DNA from: Spirochaetia bacterium
GTDB taxonomy: Bacteria > Spirochaetota > Spirochaetia > JABMQR01
DNA: 43,374 bases
Assembly (NCBI GenBank): GCA_016784705.1
Contig: JADHUD010000001.1
Coordinates: forward strand, 1-43,374
Direction of reading: 5' to 3'
Shown: piece by piece, positions 7,539 to 40,961 of the stretch
Numbering within the stretch: position 1 is the first letter of the stretch
How the letters are laid out: every line of letters begins with the position of its first letter
Notes under the pieces: model-generated
Seen by the model: only the letters and a program-made list of their open reading frames with translations
Told to the model about the DNA's origin: nothing
The model's database searches: none
Program-made: the position numbers and the translations under genes

Positions 7539-7620
7539 AAGTAACTCCAATGATTGAGAAAGATTGAGTTTGTTCTGTCTGAGGGGATCTGTGTGAAAGA
7601 ATAAGCAATAAATTGCTTAT

Positions 7621-7712
7621 GTCGATCCCTTCGCTGGAATTACCCAGATCAGGTTCAACGGGTGTGATCTCAGGCTTCAAATCTGTTTTAGATAGAGAAG
7701 CCACCCCAAGAC
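7621..7712 (-). promoter_or_regulatory. TPP (THI-box) riboswitch aptamer
   Basis: The minus strand reads CUUGGGGUGGCUUC..GAAGCCUGAGAUCACACCCGUUGAACCUGAUCUGGGUAAUUCCAGCGAAGGGAUCG. It contains the invariant CUGAGA and ACCUGAUCUGG.UAAU.CCAGCG blocks of the TPP riboswitch and lies directly upstream of thiB. Confidence 0.92.
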
Positions 7713-7719
7713 ATTTTGT

Positions 7720-7819: not shown

Positions 7820-7898
7820 GTTTGCATTCAGCAATAAAGAAATAATAGAAAATTTAGTATCGGATATTTATGGACTAATAGTTTGCATTCAGCAATAA
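7820..7898. repeat. 18-bp perfect direct repeat GTTTGCATTCAGCAATAA (two copies)
   Basis: Copies at 7820-7837 and 7881-7898, 61 bp apart start to start, just upstream of the murG ATG. Confidence 0.9.
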
Positions 7899-7906
7899 TA
7901 CTCTAT

Positions 7907-9043
7907 ATGAAAAGTAGTAAAAAGAGTGCGTCCATTGCTTTTACCGGCGGGGGAACTGCGGGTCATATCTTACCAGGGATTGCTGTAATTGAGGTGCTGA
8001 AAAAATACCATTCTAGAGAAACTGACAAACCTGGCAGTAAGGGCTTTGAAATGTTCTGGATATGCTCCAGAAGTGTTGCTGAGCAGAAATTATTGCAAAA
8101 AAATGGTATACCTTCTTATCCGATAGCAGCGGGAAAATTACGAAGATATTTTTCTATAAAAAATTTTCTGGATGTTTTTCTGGTTTTCGGAGGAATTCTC
8201 CAATCCATCTCCATTCTGTGGAGAAAAAAACCCGCATTACTTTTCTCGAAAGGTGGTTATGTAAGCTTCCCGCCGGTTGCTGCCGCATGGCTTTTGAAAA
8301 TACCCATTATTATACATGAATCAGATTTAGATCCTGGTTTAACTACTCGGTTAACTGCTAGATTTGCCAGTAAAATTCTTATTCCCTTTAAGGAATCACG
8401 AAGATTTTATCCGGATTCATATAGAGAGAAACTCGTAGTAACCGGAAACCCAGTGAGAAGCGATGTAAAAAATGGCAGTAAAGCGGAGGGACTGCTATTT
8501 TGCGGAGTACCTGATAACAAACCTATTATTTTTGCTGCAGGTGGAAGTCAGGGTGCAGTGCGGATCAATAAACTTTTAGAATTGTGTATACACGAGTTAT
8601 GTGAAAAGTTTGTAGTAATACATCAAACTGGATTTAACTGGACGTTTGCATTTAAGCATAATAATTATAGACACTTCACTTTTATTGATGAACATTATGC
8701 TGATATTGCTGCAGCATCTGATCTGGTTATTTCAAGAGCAGGAGCTGGAGCTGTATGGGAATTTGCAATTATGGGTAAGCCGATGATTCTTATTCCCATA
8801 AATTCTGCTTCAAGCAGGGGAGATCAGTTGCGGAATGCTGATTTCTTTGAAAATAATGGTGCTGCTGTTGTCCTGAAAGGAAAAAAAGTAAATACAGAAA
8901 ATCTTAAAAATGTTATACTATCACTAGTAGAAAATGATAACTATAGAAAAGAATTGGTAAAACATGCAAAAATACTCTGCAATGATAATGCAGACATATC
9001 AGTTGCTGATGTTATCATAACAGATATTGGAGGAATTCTATGA
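7907..9043 (+). CDS. murG: UDP-GlcNAc:undecaprenyl-PP-MurNAc-pentapeptide GlcNAc transferase (MurG)
   Basis: N-terminal FTGGGTAGHILPG motif and the C-terminal glycosyltransferase-28 region (ISRAGAGAVWE). Start placed at the ATG at 7907 (MKSSKK). The ORF track starts at TTG 7883, inside the direct repeat. Confidence 0.9.
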   Translation: MKSSKKSASIAFTGGGTAGHILPGIAVIEVLKKYHSRETDKPGSKGFEMFWICSRSVAEQKLLQKNGIPSYPIAAGKLRRYFSIKNFLDVFLVFGGILQSISILWRKKPALLFSKGGYVSFPPVAAAWLLKIPIIIHESDLDPGLTTRLTARFASKILIPFKESRRFYPDSYREKLVVTGNPVRSDVKNGSKAEGLLFCGVPDNKPIIFAAGGSQGAVRINKLLELCIHELCEKFVVIHQTGFNWTFAFKHNNYRHFTFIDEHYADIAAASDLVISRAGAGAVWEFAIMGKPMILIPINSASSRGDQLRNADFFENNGAAVVLKGKKVNTENLKNVILSLVENDNYRKELVKHAKILCNDNADISVADVIITDIGGIL

Positions 9044-9519
9044 CATTTGAAGTGCTGGATGTTATTGCACTCGTAATTTTGCTGGTTTCTGGACTTCGTG
9101 CTATGTTTAAGGGTTTTATTAAGGAGTTTATGTCTAAAGCAGGCATATTAATTGGTTTTTTTGTTGCATTAATGTTTAGTTCTGCACTTGCTCCGTATAT
9201 TGATGCGCAATTTGGTTTCGGTACCTGGAGCAATATTGCTGCGTTTGCTGCTCTTTTTCTAGCAGGATATATCGTTACAAAGTTAGTGGCAAATACTCTT
9301 AGAACGGTAATAGAGGGACTTCATCTTGCTTTTCTGGATAATATACTCGGCTTTGTTTTTGGGTTGCTGGAAGGTGCAGTAATCATCTCATTTATTATAT
9401 ATCTGCTTCGTTTTCAGACCGTTATTGTTATTGAGGACTTTTTATCACAAAGCTGGGTTGTACAGCTTCTTGAGCCGATCGCACCACGCAGTGTTGAATT
9501 CTTTGAGAAGACATTATAA
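9040..9519 (+). CDS. cvpA: CvpA-family membrane protein
   Basis: 159 aa with four hydrophobic helices and a CvpA-like N-terminus (DVIALVILLVSGLRAMFKGFIKE). The start overlaps the murG stop. Confidence 0.75.
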   Translation: MTFEVLDVIALVILLVSGLRAMFKGFIKEFMSKAGILIGFFVALMFSSALAPYIDAQFGFGTWSNIAAFAALFLAGYIVTKLVANTLRTVIEGLHLAFLDNILGFVFGLLEGAVIISFIIYLLRFQTVIVIEDFLSQSWVVQLLEPIAPRSVEFFEKTL

Positions 9520-9526
9520 TGGCAAC

Positions 9527-9771
9527 CTATCCTAGTACCCTGTACAACTTAAATCTTAGGATTCTTACTTGTACGCGGTAGGTATCTGCATCGTCAGGAT
9601 ACGAAGTAAAAAATCTGGATTTTTTACTTTTGGCAGAATAACAACTCACATAGTTCGTTGTTATTCTGCACACACCTTAGCTGGCTAAGACTTCGTATTC
9701 TTCCTTGCATATACCCACAGGGTACTGCGCGTAAGAACCTGTAAGTTTAAGCTGTACAGGGTACTAGATAG
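9527..9771. other. Unclassified ~245-nt highly self-complementary element (structured RNA candidate or MITE-like element)
   Basis: The ends pair perfectly: 9532-9546 CTAGTACCCTGTACA with 9753-9767 TGTACAGGGTACTAG. Pairing continues inward with small bulges for ~60 bp. The apex carries three hairpins at 9605-9628, 9633-9669 and 9676-9689. No ORF. Confidence 0.6.
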
Positions 9772-9894
9772 ACGTAATCATTTCATACCTGTTACGTTTT
9801 ACAAATGTTTGTACTGCTTATTTGCAGAATATATTTGCTGTTTTTTCTAATTATATTTTAAAGAAAATCCTTCTTCTTTAAGGGGAGCCGTTAA

Positions 9895-11067
9895 TTGCTT
9901 GAAAGAATATATGGACATCAAAGTCTAAAAAACCAGCTTTCACATTTGATATTAAATAAAACACTTCCTTCGGGTCTTCTATTTGCAGGACCCCGGTTTT
10001 CAGGAAGATTAACCACTGCGCTGGAGATTGCGGAAATCGTTTCATGTACAGAAACACATACACCACTCTGTTCATGTGAAAACTGCCGCAATAACAGAAC
10101 AGGTACTCATCCCTATACAATCATGCTGTTAAGTCGTGATCTTTCTAAAGAAATAGCTGCATCGTATGACACATATTGCAAAACACAGATACCGGATACT
10201 GTTCTGTTATTAATCAGACAGGTGAGAAAACTTATCAGCAGATATCGTACAGATTTATATGATGATTCAACCGCTGCTGCAAAATCACTGCTGAAAACAG
10301 CATTTGAAATTGATGAATTACTTCTGTTGTTTCAGTACCAGAACAATGGATCGGGAACAGTAAAACTAGCCGGAGAGCTGGTAAAAAAAAGTAAACAGCT
10401 AGCTTTATCTGTTAAAAGCGGTAATATTCCCGTCTCTCAAATACGTAAAATTGCTTCATGGATATATTCAGCACCAGAAAATCAGGTGAAATGCATAATA
10501 ATTGAAGGGATAGAAGGAATTACTGACGCATCGAAAAATGCATTATTGAAAATAGTTGAGGAACCTCCGGTAAATACATATTTTATGCTTATAGCTGAAT
10601 CCATTGGACGAATACCTCAAACTATTCTCTCAAGAGTTCGAAGATATCATTTTGTACAACTGGATGAAAAATCGAAAACTGATGTCATTCGAGAAATATA
10701 TTCGGATGACCCTGATTTGTATGATTCTTTAAAAACATTTTTTATGGTCAAATCTGGGGTTAACTGTCGAGAATTACATGCAGATGCTGAGACATTTCTT
10801 TTATCTGCCATGAATCGATCGGATGTTTCCTATAAAGATTTTCAAAACTTATTAGCAAAAATAAACTCTGGAAAACTATTTCCGGAATTTATAAATGAGA
10901 TAGTAACTGTGTTAGAGCAGGAAGTTGAAGATAGATTAATTAGCAGAGATAATGCGGGTAGAATCTTAACAAATATAAAAATGGTAAGTTCAAGGCAAAT
11001 AATCTATAATCAGCATCCAGCATTAGCTCTGGAATCACTATATAATAGTATACGGATTGGTTTGTAA
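9895..11067 (+). CDS. holB: DNA polymerase III delta-prime subunit (clamp-loader, HolB-like)
   Basis: AAA+ clamp-loader motifs: LLFAGPRFSG, a Cys-rich Zn module (CSCENC), ALLKIVEEPP and TILSRVRRYHF. TTG start 7 nt after GGGGAG. Confidence 0.8.
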   Translation: MLERIYGHQSLKNQLSHLILNKTLPSGLLFAGPRFSGRLTTALEIAEIVSCTETHTPLCSCENCRNNRTGTHPYTIMLLSRDLSKEIAASYDTYCKTQIPDTVLLLIRQVRKLISRYRTDLYDDSTAAAKSLLKTAFEIDELLLLFQYQNNGSGTVKLAGELVKKSKQLALSVKSGNIPVSQIRKIASWIYSAPENQVKCIIIEGIEGITDASKNALLKIVEEPPVNTYFMLIAESIGRIPQTILSRVRRYHFVQLDEKSKTDVIREIYSDDPDLYDSLKTFFMVKSGVNCRELHADAETFLLSAMNRSDVSYKDFQNLLAKINSGKLFPEFINEIVTVLEQEVEDRLISRDNAGRILTNIKMVSSRQIIYNQHPALALESLYNSIRIGL

Positions 11068-29285: not shown

Positions 29286-29858
29286 TCAATTATCAGTAAA
29301 GCTTCCGATGCTGAAACTTTTACGGTGTATTGGGGATATACCAAACTCATGGCATTTTAAACGATGTTCTTTTGTTGGATAACCTTTATGCTTTTCAAAA
29401 CCCCACTCAGGATAAATTTTAGAAATTTTTTCCATCCATAGATCTCTAGCAGTTTTAGCAAGAATTGAAGCGGCCATTATTTCATGAATGAGTGAGTCGC
29501 CTCTTATTACTGCAGCGGTCGGGACATCTATTGCCGGGGTGTATTTTCCGTCTACAATTACTTCACAATTGTCTTTTACCCAGCTTGGAAGCTTTTCAAA
29601 TGCACGCTTCATGGTTATAAGAGTTGCTTTATGAATATTAACTGAATCAATCGTTGCCGGAGCTGCCCATGCCACTGACCATGCAATTGCAAGCTCTTTA
29701 ATAATCATTTCAGCTTTCAAACGGTTTGATTTACTTAATTTTTTGGAATCAGCTAAAATTTCAATAGGAAAATCATCGGGTAGTACAACTGCTGATGCTG
29801 TTACCGGACCTGCCAGCGGGCCTCTGCCTGCTTCATCAATGCCGCAAATATATTTCAT
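29286..29858 (-). CDS. rnhB: Ribonuclease HII
   Basis: The ICGIDEAGRGPLAGPV catalytic motif at the N-terminus, DSKKLS, and a length of 190 aa. Confidence 0.92.
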   Translation of the reverse strand: MKYICGIDEAGRGPLAGPVTASAVVLPDDFPIEILADSKKLSKSNRLKAEMIIKELAIAWSVAWAAPATIDSVNIHKATLITMKRAFEKLPSWVKDNCEVIVDGKYTPAIDVPTAAVIRGDSLIHEIMAASILAKTARDLWMEKISKIYPEWGFEKHKGYPTKEHRLKCHEFGISPIHRKSFSIGSFTDN

Positions 29859-29910: not shown

Positions 29911-29935
29911 CCTGAATTCCCGAACAATTATAACG
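29911..29935. repeat. IS left terminal inverted repeat
   Basis: CCTGAATTCCCGAACAATTATAACG is the exact reverse complement of 31628-31652. Confidence 0.92.
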
Positions 29936-29993
29936 TGGTGTGCTAAAACCCTTAATTTACGTTAAATTACCGCAGTTTTCCCTTGAATTAATT

Positions 29994-30027
29994 CCCCATC
30001 CACGTTATAATTATAACGTGGATGGGG
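29994..30027. repeat. Perfect 34-bp palindrome in the IS leader
   Basis: CCCCATCCACGTTATAA (29994-30010) and TTATAACGTGGATGGGG (30011-30027) are exact reverse complements with no spacer. They overlap the first candidate ATG (30022) and sit just upstream of the second (30037). Confidence 0.9.
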
Positions 30028-31635
30028 GGTGATTTTATGGCTCTTGTATATGTGAATAATAAGAAAAATGGCACTACGTATGTGTATGAAGCAACTAACT
30101 ATTGGGACAAAGAGAAAAAACAATCGAGAAGTACGCGTATCTGCATAGGCAAATTGGATGGGGACGGTACACTTATCCGGTCAAAACGTTTGAGTGAATC
30201 AGGAGAGGTCTTGCCATTGAAGCGAGGACCAGTTCCAGCGATTCAAGCAACGCGCAGTTTTTATGGGGCAACCTATCTTTTTACTGCGTTAGGCGATAAG
30301 CTTGCAATAACCAAAGACTTGAAAACCTGCTTCCCAGATAGCTACAAGCAGTTATTATCTATTGCGTATTACCTGATTCTTGAAGACAGAAATCCATTAA
30401 GTCGTTTTCCTAAATGGGAACGTACGCACAAACACCCGTATGGGGAAAATATTGTATCGCAAAGAAGCAGTGAGTTTTTTTCCTCTATTACTGAAGAAAG
30501 CAAAGAACAGTTTTTCCGGCTTCAGGGAAAACGCCGAACTGAAAATGAATATTGGGCATACGATACCACCAGTATTTCATCTTACTCAGAATCATTAAAA
30601 CAGGTCAAGTTTGGCAAGAATAAGGATCATGACCCCCTTGCACAGATTAATCTTGCCTTATTGTTTGGAGAAACCTCTAATCTGCCTTTTTATTATCGGA
30701 AGCTGCCGGGAAACATCCCTGATGTGAAAACGGTGAAGAATCTTATCGCTGACATGGACTTCCTGGATTTTGGCAAAGTGAAACTGGTACTGGATCGTGG
30801 ATTCTACAGCGAGAATAATGTTAATGCACTGTATCGTAATCACCTGAAATTCTTACTGGCCACCAAAGTGTCCTTAAAATTTGTACGGAGAGAGTTGGAT
30901 AGTGTACGGGATACCATTCGGACCAGAGCAAACTATCATGCTCAGTACCAACTCCATACCCATACCGCCATGATTTCCTGGGATTACACCCAAGAACGTC
31001 TTTACAAAGGAGATGTGATCAAAGATACACGAAGAATGTATCTGCATATCTACTACAATGGCGAAAAAGCACTTGAGAGTGAGAATAGATTCAATGCTCT
31101 TCTTGATCTGCTTAAAGAGGAATTAATTTCCGGCAAACGAAATCCTGAGCATGAAAAACAATATCAGAAATATTTTGAGATAACCATGACTCCAATAAGA
31201 GGAGTAAAAGTTACAGCGAAACAGGAGGCAATAGATACTGCTGAAAAAGACTTTGGCTTTTTTGCCTTGATTAGCAATGAAATCAAAGAACCGATAGAGG
31301 CCTTGAGAATTTATCGAAACAAGGATTTGGTGGAAAAAGCTTTTGGAAACCTGAAAGAACGGTTAAACATGCGCCGCACGACGGTTTCTTCAGACAGTGC
31401 CTTAGAGGGCAAATTGTTTGTGCAGTTTGTCGCGTTAATCTATTTGTCCTATATAAAGAAACAGATGTCAGATCAGGAACTGTATAAAAAATATACGATG
31501 CAGGAACTCCTGGATGAATTTGATGTCATTGAATGCTTCGAACAACCTGGGAAAAACATACGGATTGGGGAAATGACTAGGAAGCAAGAGGATCTTTATC
31601 GAAAGCTGGGTGTGGAGCCTCCAACCTCGTTATAA
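30022..31635 (+). CDS. DDE transposase (IS4 superfamily / IS1634-like)
   Basis: Candidate catalytic D residues (AYDTTSISS and VLDRGFYS) and a Y-x2-K-x3-E-x6-K block (IYRNKDLVEKAFGNLK), resembling the IS4-type YREK signature. An alternative start is the ATG at 30037. Confidence 0.85.
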   Translation: MGGDFMALVYVNNKKNGTTYVYEATNYWDKEKKQSRSTRICIGKLDGDGTLIRSKRLSESGEVLPLKRGPVPAIQATRSFYGATYLFTALGDKLAITKDLKTCFPDSYKQLLSIAYYLILEDRNPLSRFPKWERTHKHPYGENIVSQRSSEFFSSITEESKEQFFRLQGKRRTENEYWAYDTTSISSYSESLKQVKFGKNKDHDPLAQINLALLFGETSNLPFYYRKLPGNIPDVKTVKNLIADMDFLDFGKVKLVLDRGFYSENNVNALYRNHLKFLLATKVSLKFVRRELDSVRDTIRTRANYHAQYQLHTHTAMISWDYTQERLYKGDVIKDTRRMYLHIYYNGEKALESENRFNALLDLLKEELISGKRNPEHEKQYQKYFEITMTPIRGVKVTAKQEAIDTAEKDFGFFALISNEIKEPIEALRIYRNKDLVEKAFGNLKERLNMRRTTVSSDSALEGKLFVQFVALIYLSYIKKQMSDQELYKKYTMQELLDEFDVIECFEQPGKNIRIGEMTRKQEDLYRKLGVEPPTSL

Positions 31636-31652
31636 TTGTTCGGGAATTCAGG
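31628..31652. repeat. IS right terminal inverted repeat
   Basis: CGTTATAATTGTTCGGGAATTCAGG. It overlaps the last codons and the stop of the transposase ORF. Confidence 0.92.
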
Positions 31653-31896: not shown

Positions 31897-34710
31897 ATGT
31901 TCCTGAAGAAAGTTGAGTTGTTTGGTTTTAAATCCTTTGCTGATAGAGTTACTCTTGAGTTTTCCGATGGAATAATCTCTTTATTAGGTCCGAATGGATG
32001 TGGTAAAAGTAATATTGTTGACAGTATTAAATGGGTTTTGGGAGAGCAATCAATAAAAACTCTTCGTGCAGGACAAATGGACGATGTTATATTCAATGGC
32101 ACAGAGTCAAGGAAGCCCTTAAATGTAGCTGAAGTCTCACTTACTATTGCGAATGATTCCGGATATCTTCAGATTGACCTACCAGAAATTGAGATTAAAA
32201 GAAGAATTTACCGCGGTGGAGAAAATGAGTATTTAATAAATAACACTCCCGTCAGACTTAAAGAAATTCGTGAACTTTTTTATGATACAGGAATTGGAAA
32301 GTCATCTTATTCAATTCTGGAACAAGGTAAGATTGATCAGATACTTTCACATAGACCTGAAGATCGCAGATATATATTCGAGGAAGCTGCAGGAATAACA
32401 AGGTATAAACAGAAAAGCGCAGAAGCAGAAAGAAAACTCTTGAAAACTGATGATAATATCAGGCAGGTTGAGAATATACTTCGTGAAGTGCGTAAAACCT
32501 ATGAATCGAGAAAAGTTCAGGCTGAAAAAGCTGCACAATCAAAAAAATTACAGGAATCTATTTATGAGATTGAAGTGGAAGTTCAGCTTTCCCGCATTAA
32601 AGAGTTAAAGCAGAAATATAATGATAAATTTGAAGAGCTGGCGATGATCGGTAAGCAGCACTCTGAGATTAAGGAATTTATTGATAAAACAAATTTAGAA
32701 CTCGAAGAAAATCTTGATGAAATAAACGTTATGTCACGTGAACGTATAGAGATGCAGACGCGTATACATCGTTTAGATGAACTAAAAAACAGTAAAGTAA
32801 ATCAAATATCACTACTTAATGATAGAATTAATGATTTTGAAAAATCGGTTCATGAAGCAAAGGACAGGGGAAGTAATCTGAGGAGTCATATTGAACGTGA
32901 TGAGAATGATATTATTTACAAGCAAAAAGCCCGAAATGATCTTTTAGAAGAAATTGATGGTATTAATCACGAAATTCAAACATTTGAGAATAATGTTTTA
33001 ACAGCTGAAAAACGGATAATCATGAATGAAGATACTATTCAGGAGAATGAACATATTATAGCTCAGGAAGAAAAAAAACAATCTGAATACCGTGATGAGC
33101 TGCTGGTATTAACTGATGCTATTGTTGTTGAATTAGATAAGAAATTAAAGGAATCCGGATACTCATATAAAGAACGCCGTGATCTTGAACTTGAAATTAA
33201 AAATCATACAAAAAATCTTATCATGCGTCTCTCCGGTAAATCCCAGATAGCCGATGATTTTATTAAAACTATTTCGGATACAAGTGAAAAAGTTGAAAAG
33301 TATCTGAAAGACCTGCTCAGTTCAATTGAGCTGACAATTGGCGAAGTTCAGCTTCTTGATACATTAGTATGTTCCTATATTGATATGACACCATCCTTTC
33401 TAGATGAGTTTCTTTCTCCAGAAGGAATTATTACCAGGAAAAGAAAGAATGATGATGCTCTGACAAAATCGCTTGAAACTGTTAAAAATTATGGAAATGA
33501 AATAAAAGACCTTCGCGAGGAGAACAGGCATCTAAACCAGAAACTATCTCAGTATCGCCAGACATTGGAAAACCTTAAAGTTTCCCAGGCTGATATGAAG
33601 GGGCGTGCGGATAGTCTCCATTCACTTGTATCAAACCTTAAAAGATCAGTTCAGGAGCAGGAACTGCTTTTTGAAGACAGCCGGAAAGATATAGACGTCT
33701 CCCTTGAAAGGCTTTCTGAAACAAAGGAAAGAATCAAGCAGACAGAAGATGAACTTTTTACTGTATCAGAAGAAGAAAAAGACCTTCAGCATGAACTTCA
33801 TGCAGTGGTTAATGAAATAGAGAGAAGAAATACTAGTGTTCGTGCACGAAGAGAGGCGGTAAACTCAAAATTCGGGCAGCTCTCTACCTTAACCAGCAGA
33901 ATTGAGAGGCTGAAAGCAGAGCTGGATTCATTGGAACATGAAATTACCTATATATATGATAATTTTGAAGATAGTTACTCCAGAAGTTTGAAAGAGTATG
34001 ATTCAAAGGTGTTTGAGATACGTGATGATATTCAGCAATTACGGCAGAAATTAAAAAATAATAAAATTGAAATGCAGAACCTTGGGTACATTAATCACAT
34101 GGCAGCAGAAGAGTATCTGGAAGTCAAGGAACGGTATGATTTTCTCTCAAGACAAATACAAGATCTGGAACAGGCTAAGAGTAACCTTCACCAGATAACC
34201 GACGAAATAACAACAAAATCCGAGGAATTATTCGCTGCTTGTTATGCAAAATTGAAAGTAAATTTTAATGCTATGTTCAGAAGGCTTTTTGGGGGAGGAA
34301 GGGCAGAATTGAAACTGGTAGACCCTGATGATATACTCCACACAGGAATCGATATCCTTGCACAGCCCCCTGGGAAAAAGTTGGAGAAAATCTCCCTTTT
34401 ATCTGGAGGTGAAAGATCTTTAACTGCAGTAGCGCTTCTTTTTGCAACTTATATGGTTAAACCCTCTCCGTTCTGTATTTTAGATGAGATTGACGCTGCC
34501 CTTGATGATGCAAATATTGCTCACTTTCTGGATGTACTTCAGGAATTCAGTGAGAATTCCCAATTTGTTATAATCACTCACAATAAAAAGACAGTCATGG
34601 GATCTAAGACATTACTAGGTGTTACCATGGAAGAGGCAGGAGTTTCAAAAGCTATCAGTTACAGAATCCAAGATCTTGAAAACGAGGAATCAATTTCCGC
34701 AACTGGTTGA
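31897..34710 (+). CDS. smc: Chromosome partition protein SMC
   Basis: 937 aa with N-terminal Walker A GPNGCGKSN, long coiled coils with a central hinge, a C-terminal signature LSGGERSL and Walker B FCILDEIDAALD. Confidence 0.93.
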   Translation: MFLKKVELFGFKSFADRVTLEFSDGIISLLGPNGCGKSNIVDSIKWVLGEQSIKTLRAGQMDDVIFNGTESRKPLNVAEVSLTIANDSGYLQIDLPEIEIKRRIYRGGENEYLINNTPVRLKEIRELFYDTGIGKSSYSILEQGKIDQILSHRPEDRRYIFEEAAGITRYKQKSAEAERKLLKTDDNIRQVENILREVRKTYESRKVQAEKAAQSKKLQESIYEIEVEVQLSRIKELKQKYNDKFEELAMIGKQHSEIKEFIDKTNLELEENLDEINVMSRERIEMQTRIHRLDELKNSKVNQISLLNDRINDFEKSVHEAKDRGSNLRSHIERDENDIIYKQKARNDLLEEIDGINHEIQTFENNVLTAEKRIIMNEDTIQENEHIIAQEEKKQSEYRDELLVLTDAIVVELDKKLKESGYSYKERRDLELEIKNHTKNLIMRLSGKSQIADDFIKTISDTSEKVEKYLKDLLSSIELTIGEVQLLDTLVCSYIDMTPSFLDEFLSPEGIITRKRKNDDALTKSLETVKNYGNEIKDLREENRHLNQKLSQYRQTLENLKVSQADMKGRADSLHSLVSNLKRSVQEQELLFEDSRKDIDVSLERLSETKERIKQTEDELFTVSEEEKDLQHELHAVVNEIERRNTSVRARREAVNSKFGQLSTLTSRIERLKAELDSLEHEITYIYDNFEDSYSRSLKEYDSKVFEIRDDIQQLRQKLKNNKIEMQNLGYINHMAAEEYLEVKERYDFLSRQIQDLEQAKSNLHQITDEITTKSEELFAACYAKLKVNFNAMFRRLFGGGRAELKLVDPDDILHTGIDILAQPPGKKLEKISLLSGGERSLTAVALLFATYMVKPSPFCILDEIDAALDDANIAHFLDVLQEFSENSQFVIITHNKKTVMGSKTLLGVTMEEAGVSKAISYRIQDLENEESISATG

Positions 34711-40202: not shown

Positions 40203-40961
40203 ATGTCATTTATCAATGAAAAACGGCTTGCGTCCTGTCCAGATGTTGATACTGGCAGAAAACGCGAGCTGTTATTGTTTGAAAAGCATGCAGGTATAAA
40301 ATTCAAAAGGATTCAGCTTCTGAACCTTGCTTTTTCACACAGATCATTTTCTAATGAATATCAGGGCTCTATTGAAAATAATGAGAAACTCGAATTTTTA
40401 GGTGATAGTGTTCTTGGCATGGTGGTTAGTGAATATTTGTTTATTCAGTTTGCTTCTATGGATGAGGGAGACTTTGCACGCATAAAGTCTTTTGTTGTTA
40501 GTGAAGAGAGCCTTTCTGAAATTGCAAAGAGATTAAAAGTTGATAATTTTATTCTAATCGGAAAAGGTGAAGAATACTCTGGCGGACGAAATAAGAAAGC
40601 TATTTTAGCTGATTGTCTCGAAGCGATAATAGGTGCTTATTATCTTGATTCGGGATTGAAAGCGGTTAGATTGTTCATACTGGACAGTTTGATTCCTGAA
40701 ATCAATAAAGTTTTAGAAAATAAGCATAAAAAGGATTACAAAACTCTTTTGCAGGAATTTGTACAAAAAAATTTTAAATCATATCCCAAATATGCACTTA
40801 TCAAAAATACCGGCCCTGATCATGATAAGATCTTTTGGATTGAGGTAGAAGTGGATGGGAATTCCTATGGACCCGGAAAGGGTAAAAATAAGAAAGAAGC
40901 TGAACAAATTGCCGCAGGAATAGCATATAAAAGTATTATTTCTAAGAAACCGTCTGTCTAA
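40203..40961 (+). CDS. rnc: Ribonuclease III
   Basis: The RNase III signature NEKLEFLGDSVLG, a catalytic ADCLEAIIGA segment, and a C-terminal dsRBD (KDYKTLLQEF..GKGKNKKEAEQIAA). Confidence 0.95.
   Translation: MSFINEKRLASCPDVDTGRKRELLLFEKHAGIKFKRIQLLNLAFSHRSFSNEYQGSIENNEKLEFLGDSVLGMVVSEYLFIQFASMDEGDFARIKSFVVSEESLSEIAKRLKVDNFILIGKGEEYSGGRNKKAILADCLEAIIGAYYLDSGLKAVRLFILDSLIPEINKVLENKHKKDYKTLLQEFVQKNFKSYPKYALIKNTGPDHDKIFWIEVEVDGNSYGPGKGKNKKEAEQIAAGIAYKSIISKKPSV

Follow-up and report, generated by a model that had tools for sequence, protein, structure and literature searches.

What is the strongly self-complementary DNA that separates cvpA from holB in this uncultured Spirochaetales lineage? 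An earlier note on the 43,374-nt stretch of DNA analyzed here (from here on, the window) described the segment at 9527-9771 as a rod capped by three hairpins and left three options open, i.e., a structured RNA, a MITE, or a DNA cruciform site, with a novel structured RNA as the preferred reading. Among these options, our analyses favor the MITE and give no support to the structured RNA, because the segment is absent in seven relatives, has terminal inverted repeats, and folds equally on both strands. The best-supported explanation is, therefore, an orphan MITE-like insertion, i.e., a non-autonomous DNA transposon, to which we assign a probability of roughly 0.65. The element is possibly of the IS630 type.

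Fold and parts of the palindrome

The sequence as well as MFE folds of both strands agree with the described architecture, and place the rod of ~60 bp and the three capping hairpins at window positions 9532-9767 (236 bp). Relative to 200 dinucleotide shuffles, the element had a fold energy of −103.3 kcal/mol (z −10.3) as plus-strand RNA, −109.2 kcal/mol (z −11.7) as minus-strand RNA, and −58.2 kcal/mol (z −10.7) as single-stranded DNA; none of the 200 shuffles was as stable as the element, either as RNA of either strand or as DNA. Because the three folds are equally strong, the palindromic character resides in the DNA itself and is not tied to one RNA strand. In a sliding scan of the whole window in segments of 250 nt, the mean fold energy was −52.8 (sd 8.4), and the next-best region outside the element was a tRNA cluster at −80.8. 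The element is the most self-complementary segment of the window, in agreement with the claim that it surpasses all other intergenic regions in this respect. Its parts, together with the remaining spacer, are as follows.

9532-9767 (236 bp): whole palindromic inserted segment, CTAG at each end included (from the inverted repeat, the folds, and the absence in relatives)
9535-9764 (230 bp): element proper, GTACCCTGTACA...TGTACAGGGTAC, if inserted into CTAG with TA duplication (suggested by the IS630 target preference)
9533-9534: candidate left TA target-site copy, inside the CTAG at 9532-9535 (sequence)
9765-9766: candidate right TA target-site copy, inside the CTAG at 9764-9767 (sequence)
9532-9568: left terminal inverted repeat, first 15 nt perfect
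9731-9767: right terminal inverted repeat, last 15 nt perfect
9571-9585: inner rod helix, left strand; pairs with 9711-9725 with three mismatches and has a subterminal GTAC (folds)
9711-9725: inner rod helix, right strand; carries the variants 9719 A>C and 9723 T>C of strain L037
9599-9607: innermost rod helix, left strand; pairs with 9690-9698 (repeat finder)
9690-9698: innermost rod helix, right strand; includes the 9690 A>G change of strain L036
9604-9629: hairpin H1, A/T-only stem, CTGG loop (repeat finder, folds)
9633-9669: hairpin H2, perfect 13-bp stem (9633-9645/9657-9669), 11-nt loop (repeat finder)
9676-9689: hairpin H3, 5-bp stem, CTGG loop (CTTAG CTGG CTAAG; sequence, folds)
9768-9894, plus strand: remaining ancestral spacer, ending in the ribosome-binding motif GGGGAGCC; aligns with the spacers of relatives

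Using a repeat finder, we confirmed that the outer arms at 9532-9546 and 9753-9767 (CTAGTACCCTGTACA) are perfectly complementary over 15 bp. This 15-mer has two sites in the window, both of which are element ends, against 0.03 expected, and the terminal inverted repeat reaches 37 nt at 81% complementarity (9532-9568/9731-9767). Farther inward, the helix formed by 9596-9607 and 9690-9701 is 92% complementary. All three hairpins are present as described, with H1 extending over 9604-9615/9618-9629 in the repeat finder, and the CTGG loop common to H1 and H3 is readable directly from the sequence. The distance from the cvpA stop codon (9517-9519) to position 9527 is 7 nt and not, as originally given, 8 nt.

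The motif GTAC occurs six times in the element in a symmetric arrangement (9535, 9542, and 9571 on the left; 9722, 9754, and 9761 on the right), which is ~ten-fold over the 0.58 occurrences expected from the window rate, and the termini are GTAC-rich (GTACCCTGTAC). Moreover, an exact direct repeat of the terminal 10-mer ACAGGGTACT (9756-9765) is found at 9717-9726, 39 bp inward of the right end. Both ends of the element carry CTAG, although the window as a whole strongly avoids this motif (observed/expected 0.23). These ends parse as C-TA-(GTAC...GTAC)-TA-G, i.e., C-TA-(GTACCCTGTACA...TGTACAGGGTAC)-TA-G. The coding capacity of the element is nil: there are stops in all six frames, and the longest ORF, of 48 aa, has no gene call in public assemblies.

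The cvpA-holB spacer in relatives

Based on Pfam, the gene order at the locus is murG (7883-9043), cvpA (Colicin_V; 9040-9519), holB for delta' (DNA_pol3_delta2; 9895-11067), a gene for a PAS histidine kinase, and a gene for a sigma-54 response regulator, and the gene identities proposed earlier, including that of the sigma-54 activator, were right. A DinG-like helicase comes next in the version of the locus found in relatives. The start codon of holB is a TTG at 9895, and the cvpA-holB spacer of the window is 375 nt. The orthologous spacer is 104 nt in L029 and L030 (HolB 82% identical), L031 (80%), and L004 (77%), 67 nt in a P0005 contig (78%), and 146 nt in L008 (= L038; 66%). In L007 (79%), it is 0 nt, and the cvpA stop codon TAA abuts the holB TTG start (L007 1845-1850); because the two genes abut, they are presumably co-transcribed in this relative. 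L007 is GCA_013202335.1, which carries the NCBI label "Bacteroidetes bacterium," but its locus is syntenic with those of the Spirochaetales relatives. Among these sequences, L004 was the one useful relative obtained by scanning JGI metagenomes with HolB. The nearest named genome is "MAG: Spirochaetales bacterium RS_6_9," which has a HolB that is 66% identical; in the HolB scan of GTDB representatives, the closest genome likewise reached 66%.

The palindrome is absent from the orthologous spacer in all seven relatives (HolB 66-82% identical), and in L029, L030, L031, L004, L007, and L008 the alignment gap coincides with the palindrome. The 127 nt located 3' of the element, including GGGGAGCC before the TTG, align with the spacers of the relatives; at the junction itself, the relatives are too diverged in the multiple alignment for a base-by-base reconstruction of the empty site. 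By comparison, the element is found, identical or nearly so, in all contigs of the same species, drawn from ENA and Logan metagenome assemblies, that span the site. Because the element is absent in the seven relatives and present in all covering contigs of the species, the sequence comparisons indicate that it is a lineage-specific insertion, which is confined to one spirochaete species among those compared. On the same comparisons, the insertion is placed after the split from the relatives at ~80% HolB identity.

Searches for homologs, further copies, and a partner IS

The earlier note had recognized no known RNA class in the segment. In line with this, cmscan of positions 9300-10000 on both strands with permissive filters and a cutoff of E ≤ 10 returned only noise, the best matches being AgrB, with E = 3.3 and 17.5 bits (threshold, 40), and a fungal snoRNA (E = 6.4). 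At the Rfam gathering thresholds, the whole window contains a TPP riboswitch and four tRNAs only, with nothing in the element. No promoter-like or terminator-like sites were found to bound the element. The TPP riboswitch (7608-7718, minus strand; 66.9 bits) lies 5' of a solute-binding protein/ABC transporter operon that is divergent from murG and that is probably a thiamine uptake system.

Searches for a second copy of the element gave none in the 43-kb window, in 59 kb of same-species DNA (the window plus 8 kb on its left and 7.6 kb on its right), or in the fetched loci of the relatives. A two-anchor pattern of 12+12 nt from the ends had 0 matches among 185,579 GTDB representative genomes, a set without the source species; that the source species is absent from this set follows from the pattern having missed even the source locus, and the HolB scan agrees. 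In BLASTN searches of plasmids with the whole element and of 72,556 plasmids with each 46-nt end, we obtained nothing or chance matches inside genes, and the whole element had no real match among phages. The CTAGTACCCTGTACA-type 15-mer end had 19 single matches in viral contigs, none of which extended, as expected of chance; the best of these (L014) was rejected as a chance match that sits inside a phage coding region. An 8+8 end pattern proved too loose in viral contigs and gave chance matches only. Finally, a six-frame peptide query had no match among 5.8 billion predicted proteins, a null result that is weakly informative because the known copy has no called ORF either.

Within the 59 kb of same-species DNA, there is no IS with ends matching those of the element. 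The sole IS in this DNA is intact, maps to 29911-31652 between rnhB (29286-29858, minus strand) and smc (31897-34710), and encodes a 537-aa DDE_Tnp_1 transposase (30022-31635). It has 29-bp inverted ends that are 97% complementary and a 6-bp target duplication, the direct repeat TAATAT, on either side. This IS was rejected as the parent element, as its ends are unrelated to those of the palindrome. The genome thus carries mobile DNA, which we counted in favor of the MITE reading. A separate 30+30-nt palindrome (29981-30040) lies over the start of the transposase gene of this IS.

Allelic variation and origin of the element

The flanks of the element are near-invariant within the species, with 1-4 differences per 6-13 kb in L001, L160, L161, and L163, and the element is more variable than these flanks, i.e., within-species differences cluster inside it. 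L036 has an A>G change at 9690. L037, in which contig positions 1-40 correspond to window 9692-9731, differs from the window at three places within ~12 nt and matches it fully over the remaining 1.77 kb of the contig. Two of these changes (9719 A>C and 9723 T>C) lie in the inner helix, and the third, a 2-nt deletion in 9727-9731, falls just beyond it. In L035 (Logan sample ERR13319669), positions 1-23 are a different 23 nt (TTGTTACTTAGGGGGAAAGGGCA) that is joined at 9761 and abuts GTACTAGATAG...; the junction lies 7 nt inward of the right end, and the next 2.8 kb are identical to the window. The 23-mer had no match elsewhere in the sequences searched. Counting the window type, 9690G, L037 with its cluster of changes, and the L035 junction at 9761, the element would have at least four alleles. 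With respect to pairing, 9690 A>G keeps a wobble pair on the plus strand only, 9723 T>C keeps one on the minus strand only, and 9719 A>C mends a mismatch on both strands. Overall, the four within-species changes favor neither RNA strand, and there is likewise no strand bias in the wobble positions, as noted earlier.

Six contigs end in or at the edge of the element (9532, 9560, 9585, 9692, 9735, and 9761), and a seventh ends at 9815, 48 nt beyond it. In ERZ24794644, two SPAdes contigs overlap by 54 nt at 9532-9585, which corresponds to one missing 56-mer at k = 55. The clustered variants and the contig breaks fit a second, slightly different copy that confuses assemblers, which is suggestive only, and they also fit poor coverage and error at a strong hairpin. 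As proof of a repeat, the breaks were discarded: the 54-nt overlap better fits a coverage gap at the hairpin than a repeat branch. The Logan breaks (9560 and 9735) were not counted as evidence because they are near, and not exactly at, 30 nt inside the ends.

MITEs are mainly intergenic, span 50-800 bp, and are characterized by target duplications of 2-10 bp as well as inverted ends that measure at least 10-15 bp (PMC11602168). Compared with this description, the element is 236 bp without coding capacity, its imperfect terminal repeats, of ~35 bp, are perfect over the outer 15 bp and 81% complementary over 37 nt, and its site is empty in the seven relatives and filled in the covering same-species contigs. 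Transcripts of bacterial MITEs typically are long stem-loops formed by pairing of the 5' and 3' ends, and most bacterial MITE families have TA at their termini (PMC2229807). Here, a TA direct repeat is present at 9533-9534 and 9765-9766, but it is embedded in the palindromic CTAG and may be part of the inverted repeat only; because CTAG is its own reverse complement, a TA "duplication" is inseparable from an extension of the inverted repeat. ISY100 duplicates TA on insertion (PMC2170065), and IS630 prefers the TA within 5'-CTAG-3' as its target, according to an entry in the reference list of the same paper (PMC2170065). We infer that the C-TA...TA-G ends fit an IS630/Tc1-mariner insertion at CTAG with TA duplication, a reading that the palindromy of the target makes ambiguous.

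The element landed in the short cvpA-holB spacer of one Spirochaetales species after its split from the nearest sampled relatives. In such a scenario, a transposase encoded elsewhere would have bound the GTAC-rich termini and inserted the element at a CTAG site with duplication of the central TA, in the fashion of IS630/Tc1-mariner elements. Read-through transcription of murG-cvpA would then give an RNA duplex of ~60 bp, which the RNase III of the cell (gene at window 40203-40961) would cut, and this cleavage would uncouple cvpA from holB, which are adjacent or short-spaced in the relatives; holB still has 127 nt of the ancestral spacer and a ribosome-binding site of its own. If co-transcribed, the duplex of the element would probably be an RNase III substrate, as has been proposed for Correia transcripts (PMC2229807).

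Among known MITEs, the Correia or NEMIS elements of Neisseria are likewise small, non-coding, and intergenic with terminal inverted repeats and TA ends, and their transcripts fold end-to-end into a long stem-loop (PMC2229807). However, Correia elements are 107-155 bp and present in hundreds of copies, whereas the present element is 236 bp with a three-hairpin center and was found in one copy, and the two are not similar in sequence. IS630-mobilized MITEs, among them RUP of Streptococcus pneumoniae, resemble the present element in having TA termini, in lacking a transposase of their own, and in inserting at TA (PMC2229807), the last being putative for the present element, and the C-TA...TA-G ends match the CTAG preference of IS630 as listed among the references of PMC2170065. 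By contrast, the ends of RUP match those of IS630-Spn1, while the present element has no known partner IS and only a candidate TA duplication. Finally, ERIC (IRU) elements of enterobacteria are also imperfect palindromes in transcribed intergenic regions, and their presence at a given locus varies among related species, but they are ~127 bp and multi-copy with a conserved sequence, to which the present element has no similarity.

A competing explanation, raised in the earlier note, is that the rod and hairpins are the functional fold of a self-contained structured ncRNA gene, or of a 3'-UTR or leader RNA, which here would have been acquired horizontally. The fold is indeed very stable and far above chance, its tip is multi-branched with a CTGG loop common to two hairpins, and the element lies in sense orientation between co-directional genes and, therefore, is probably transcribed. 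Likewise, 6S RNA, bacterial Y RNA/YrlA, and HEARO/omega RNA have a long helix closing the 5' and 3' ends and a branched or bubbled center. Unlike these RNAs, the element has no covariance-model match at E ≤ 10 beyond the noise described above, and none of the partner genes Ro, IscB, and TnpB lies nearby. It also differs from rod-shaped ncRNAs in lacking conservation in relatives and strand asymmetry: it is missing at the locus in the seven relatives, has no homolog in any collection searched, folds equally on both strands and as far above chance as DNA, and has non-Watson-Crick positions and natural variants that are split between the strands. With no promoter-like or terminator-like site at its bounds, we consider an RNA gene distinctly unlikely. 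The palindrome could, alternatively, be of local origin; template switching during replication would have produced an inverted duplication that then diverged, without transposition. Quasi-palindromes show a clustered pattern of mutations, which the L037 variants resemble, and the element is single-copy as far as seen. Nevertheless, correction of a quasi-palindrome does not account cleanly for L037, in which one substitution improves pairing, whereas the other lowers the complementarity of the arms. Moreover, the ancestral spacer, as retained in the relatives, has no resemblance to either arm, which argues against local inverted duplication; the arms are ~76-81% alike, yet the outer 15 bp are perfect, a pattern that neutral decay would not yield; and the center consists of three separate hairpins instead of a simple turn. 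These observations make a local origin unlikely.

Two further explanations start from the variation within the species. The element might belong to a different mobile system as a relic or a site, e.g., for attachment or recombination of an integrative element, or as a single-strand origin; the L035 junction would then represent the other state of that site. The joining of a different 23 nt at 9761 to 2.8 kb of window-identical sequence would agree with this idea, but no recombinase, relaxase, or phage gene is adjacent, and the 23-mer, unmatched elsewhere, could be an assembly tip; we regard this as very improbable. Alternatively, instead of a decayed MITE, the locus could be an active hypervariable hairpin, either a new class of structured RNA obtained by horizontal transfer or a novel type of hairpin-ended mobile or recombination site. 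This would explain at least four alleles in 236 bp amid flanking 10 kb that are >99.95% identical; we view it as highly improbable.

If the MITE reading is true, the element is one more small mobile element in an uncultured Spirochaetales lineage and a clear case of an insertion that splits the tightly packed cvpA-holB pair, which abuts in one relative. A MITE is unsurprising here because these elements are common in spirochaetes, which are especially MITE-rich, with ~145 per genome in some genera (PMC11602168). For annotation, recognizing the element as a MITE keeps it from being taken for an RNA gene, and it serves as a strain marker. The remaining novelty is the unexplained allelic diversity at the hairpin, and greater significance would follow only if an active process at this hairpin underlies the clustered variation and the alternative junction.

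Variation was also noted outside the element. Compared to window 8924-9195, L036 has 46 differences in 272 nt across the murG/cvpA boundary and one in the next 2.4 kb, which resembles a short tract acquired by recombination with a diverged strain. In L162 from ERZ24794644, the alignment is broken over ~30 nt at the start of cvpA (L162 487-496; window 9069-9099), and the cvpA product is 152 aa compared to 159 aa; this cvpA may be an in-frame deletion allele, with a deletion of ~21 nt as judged from the shorter product.
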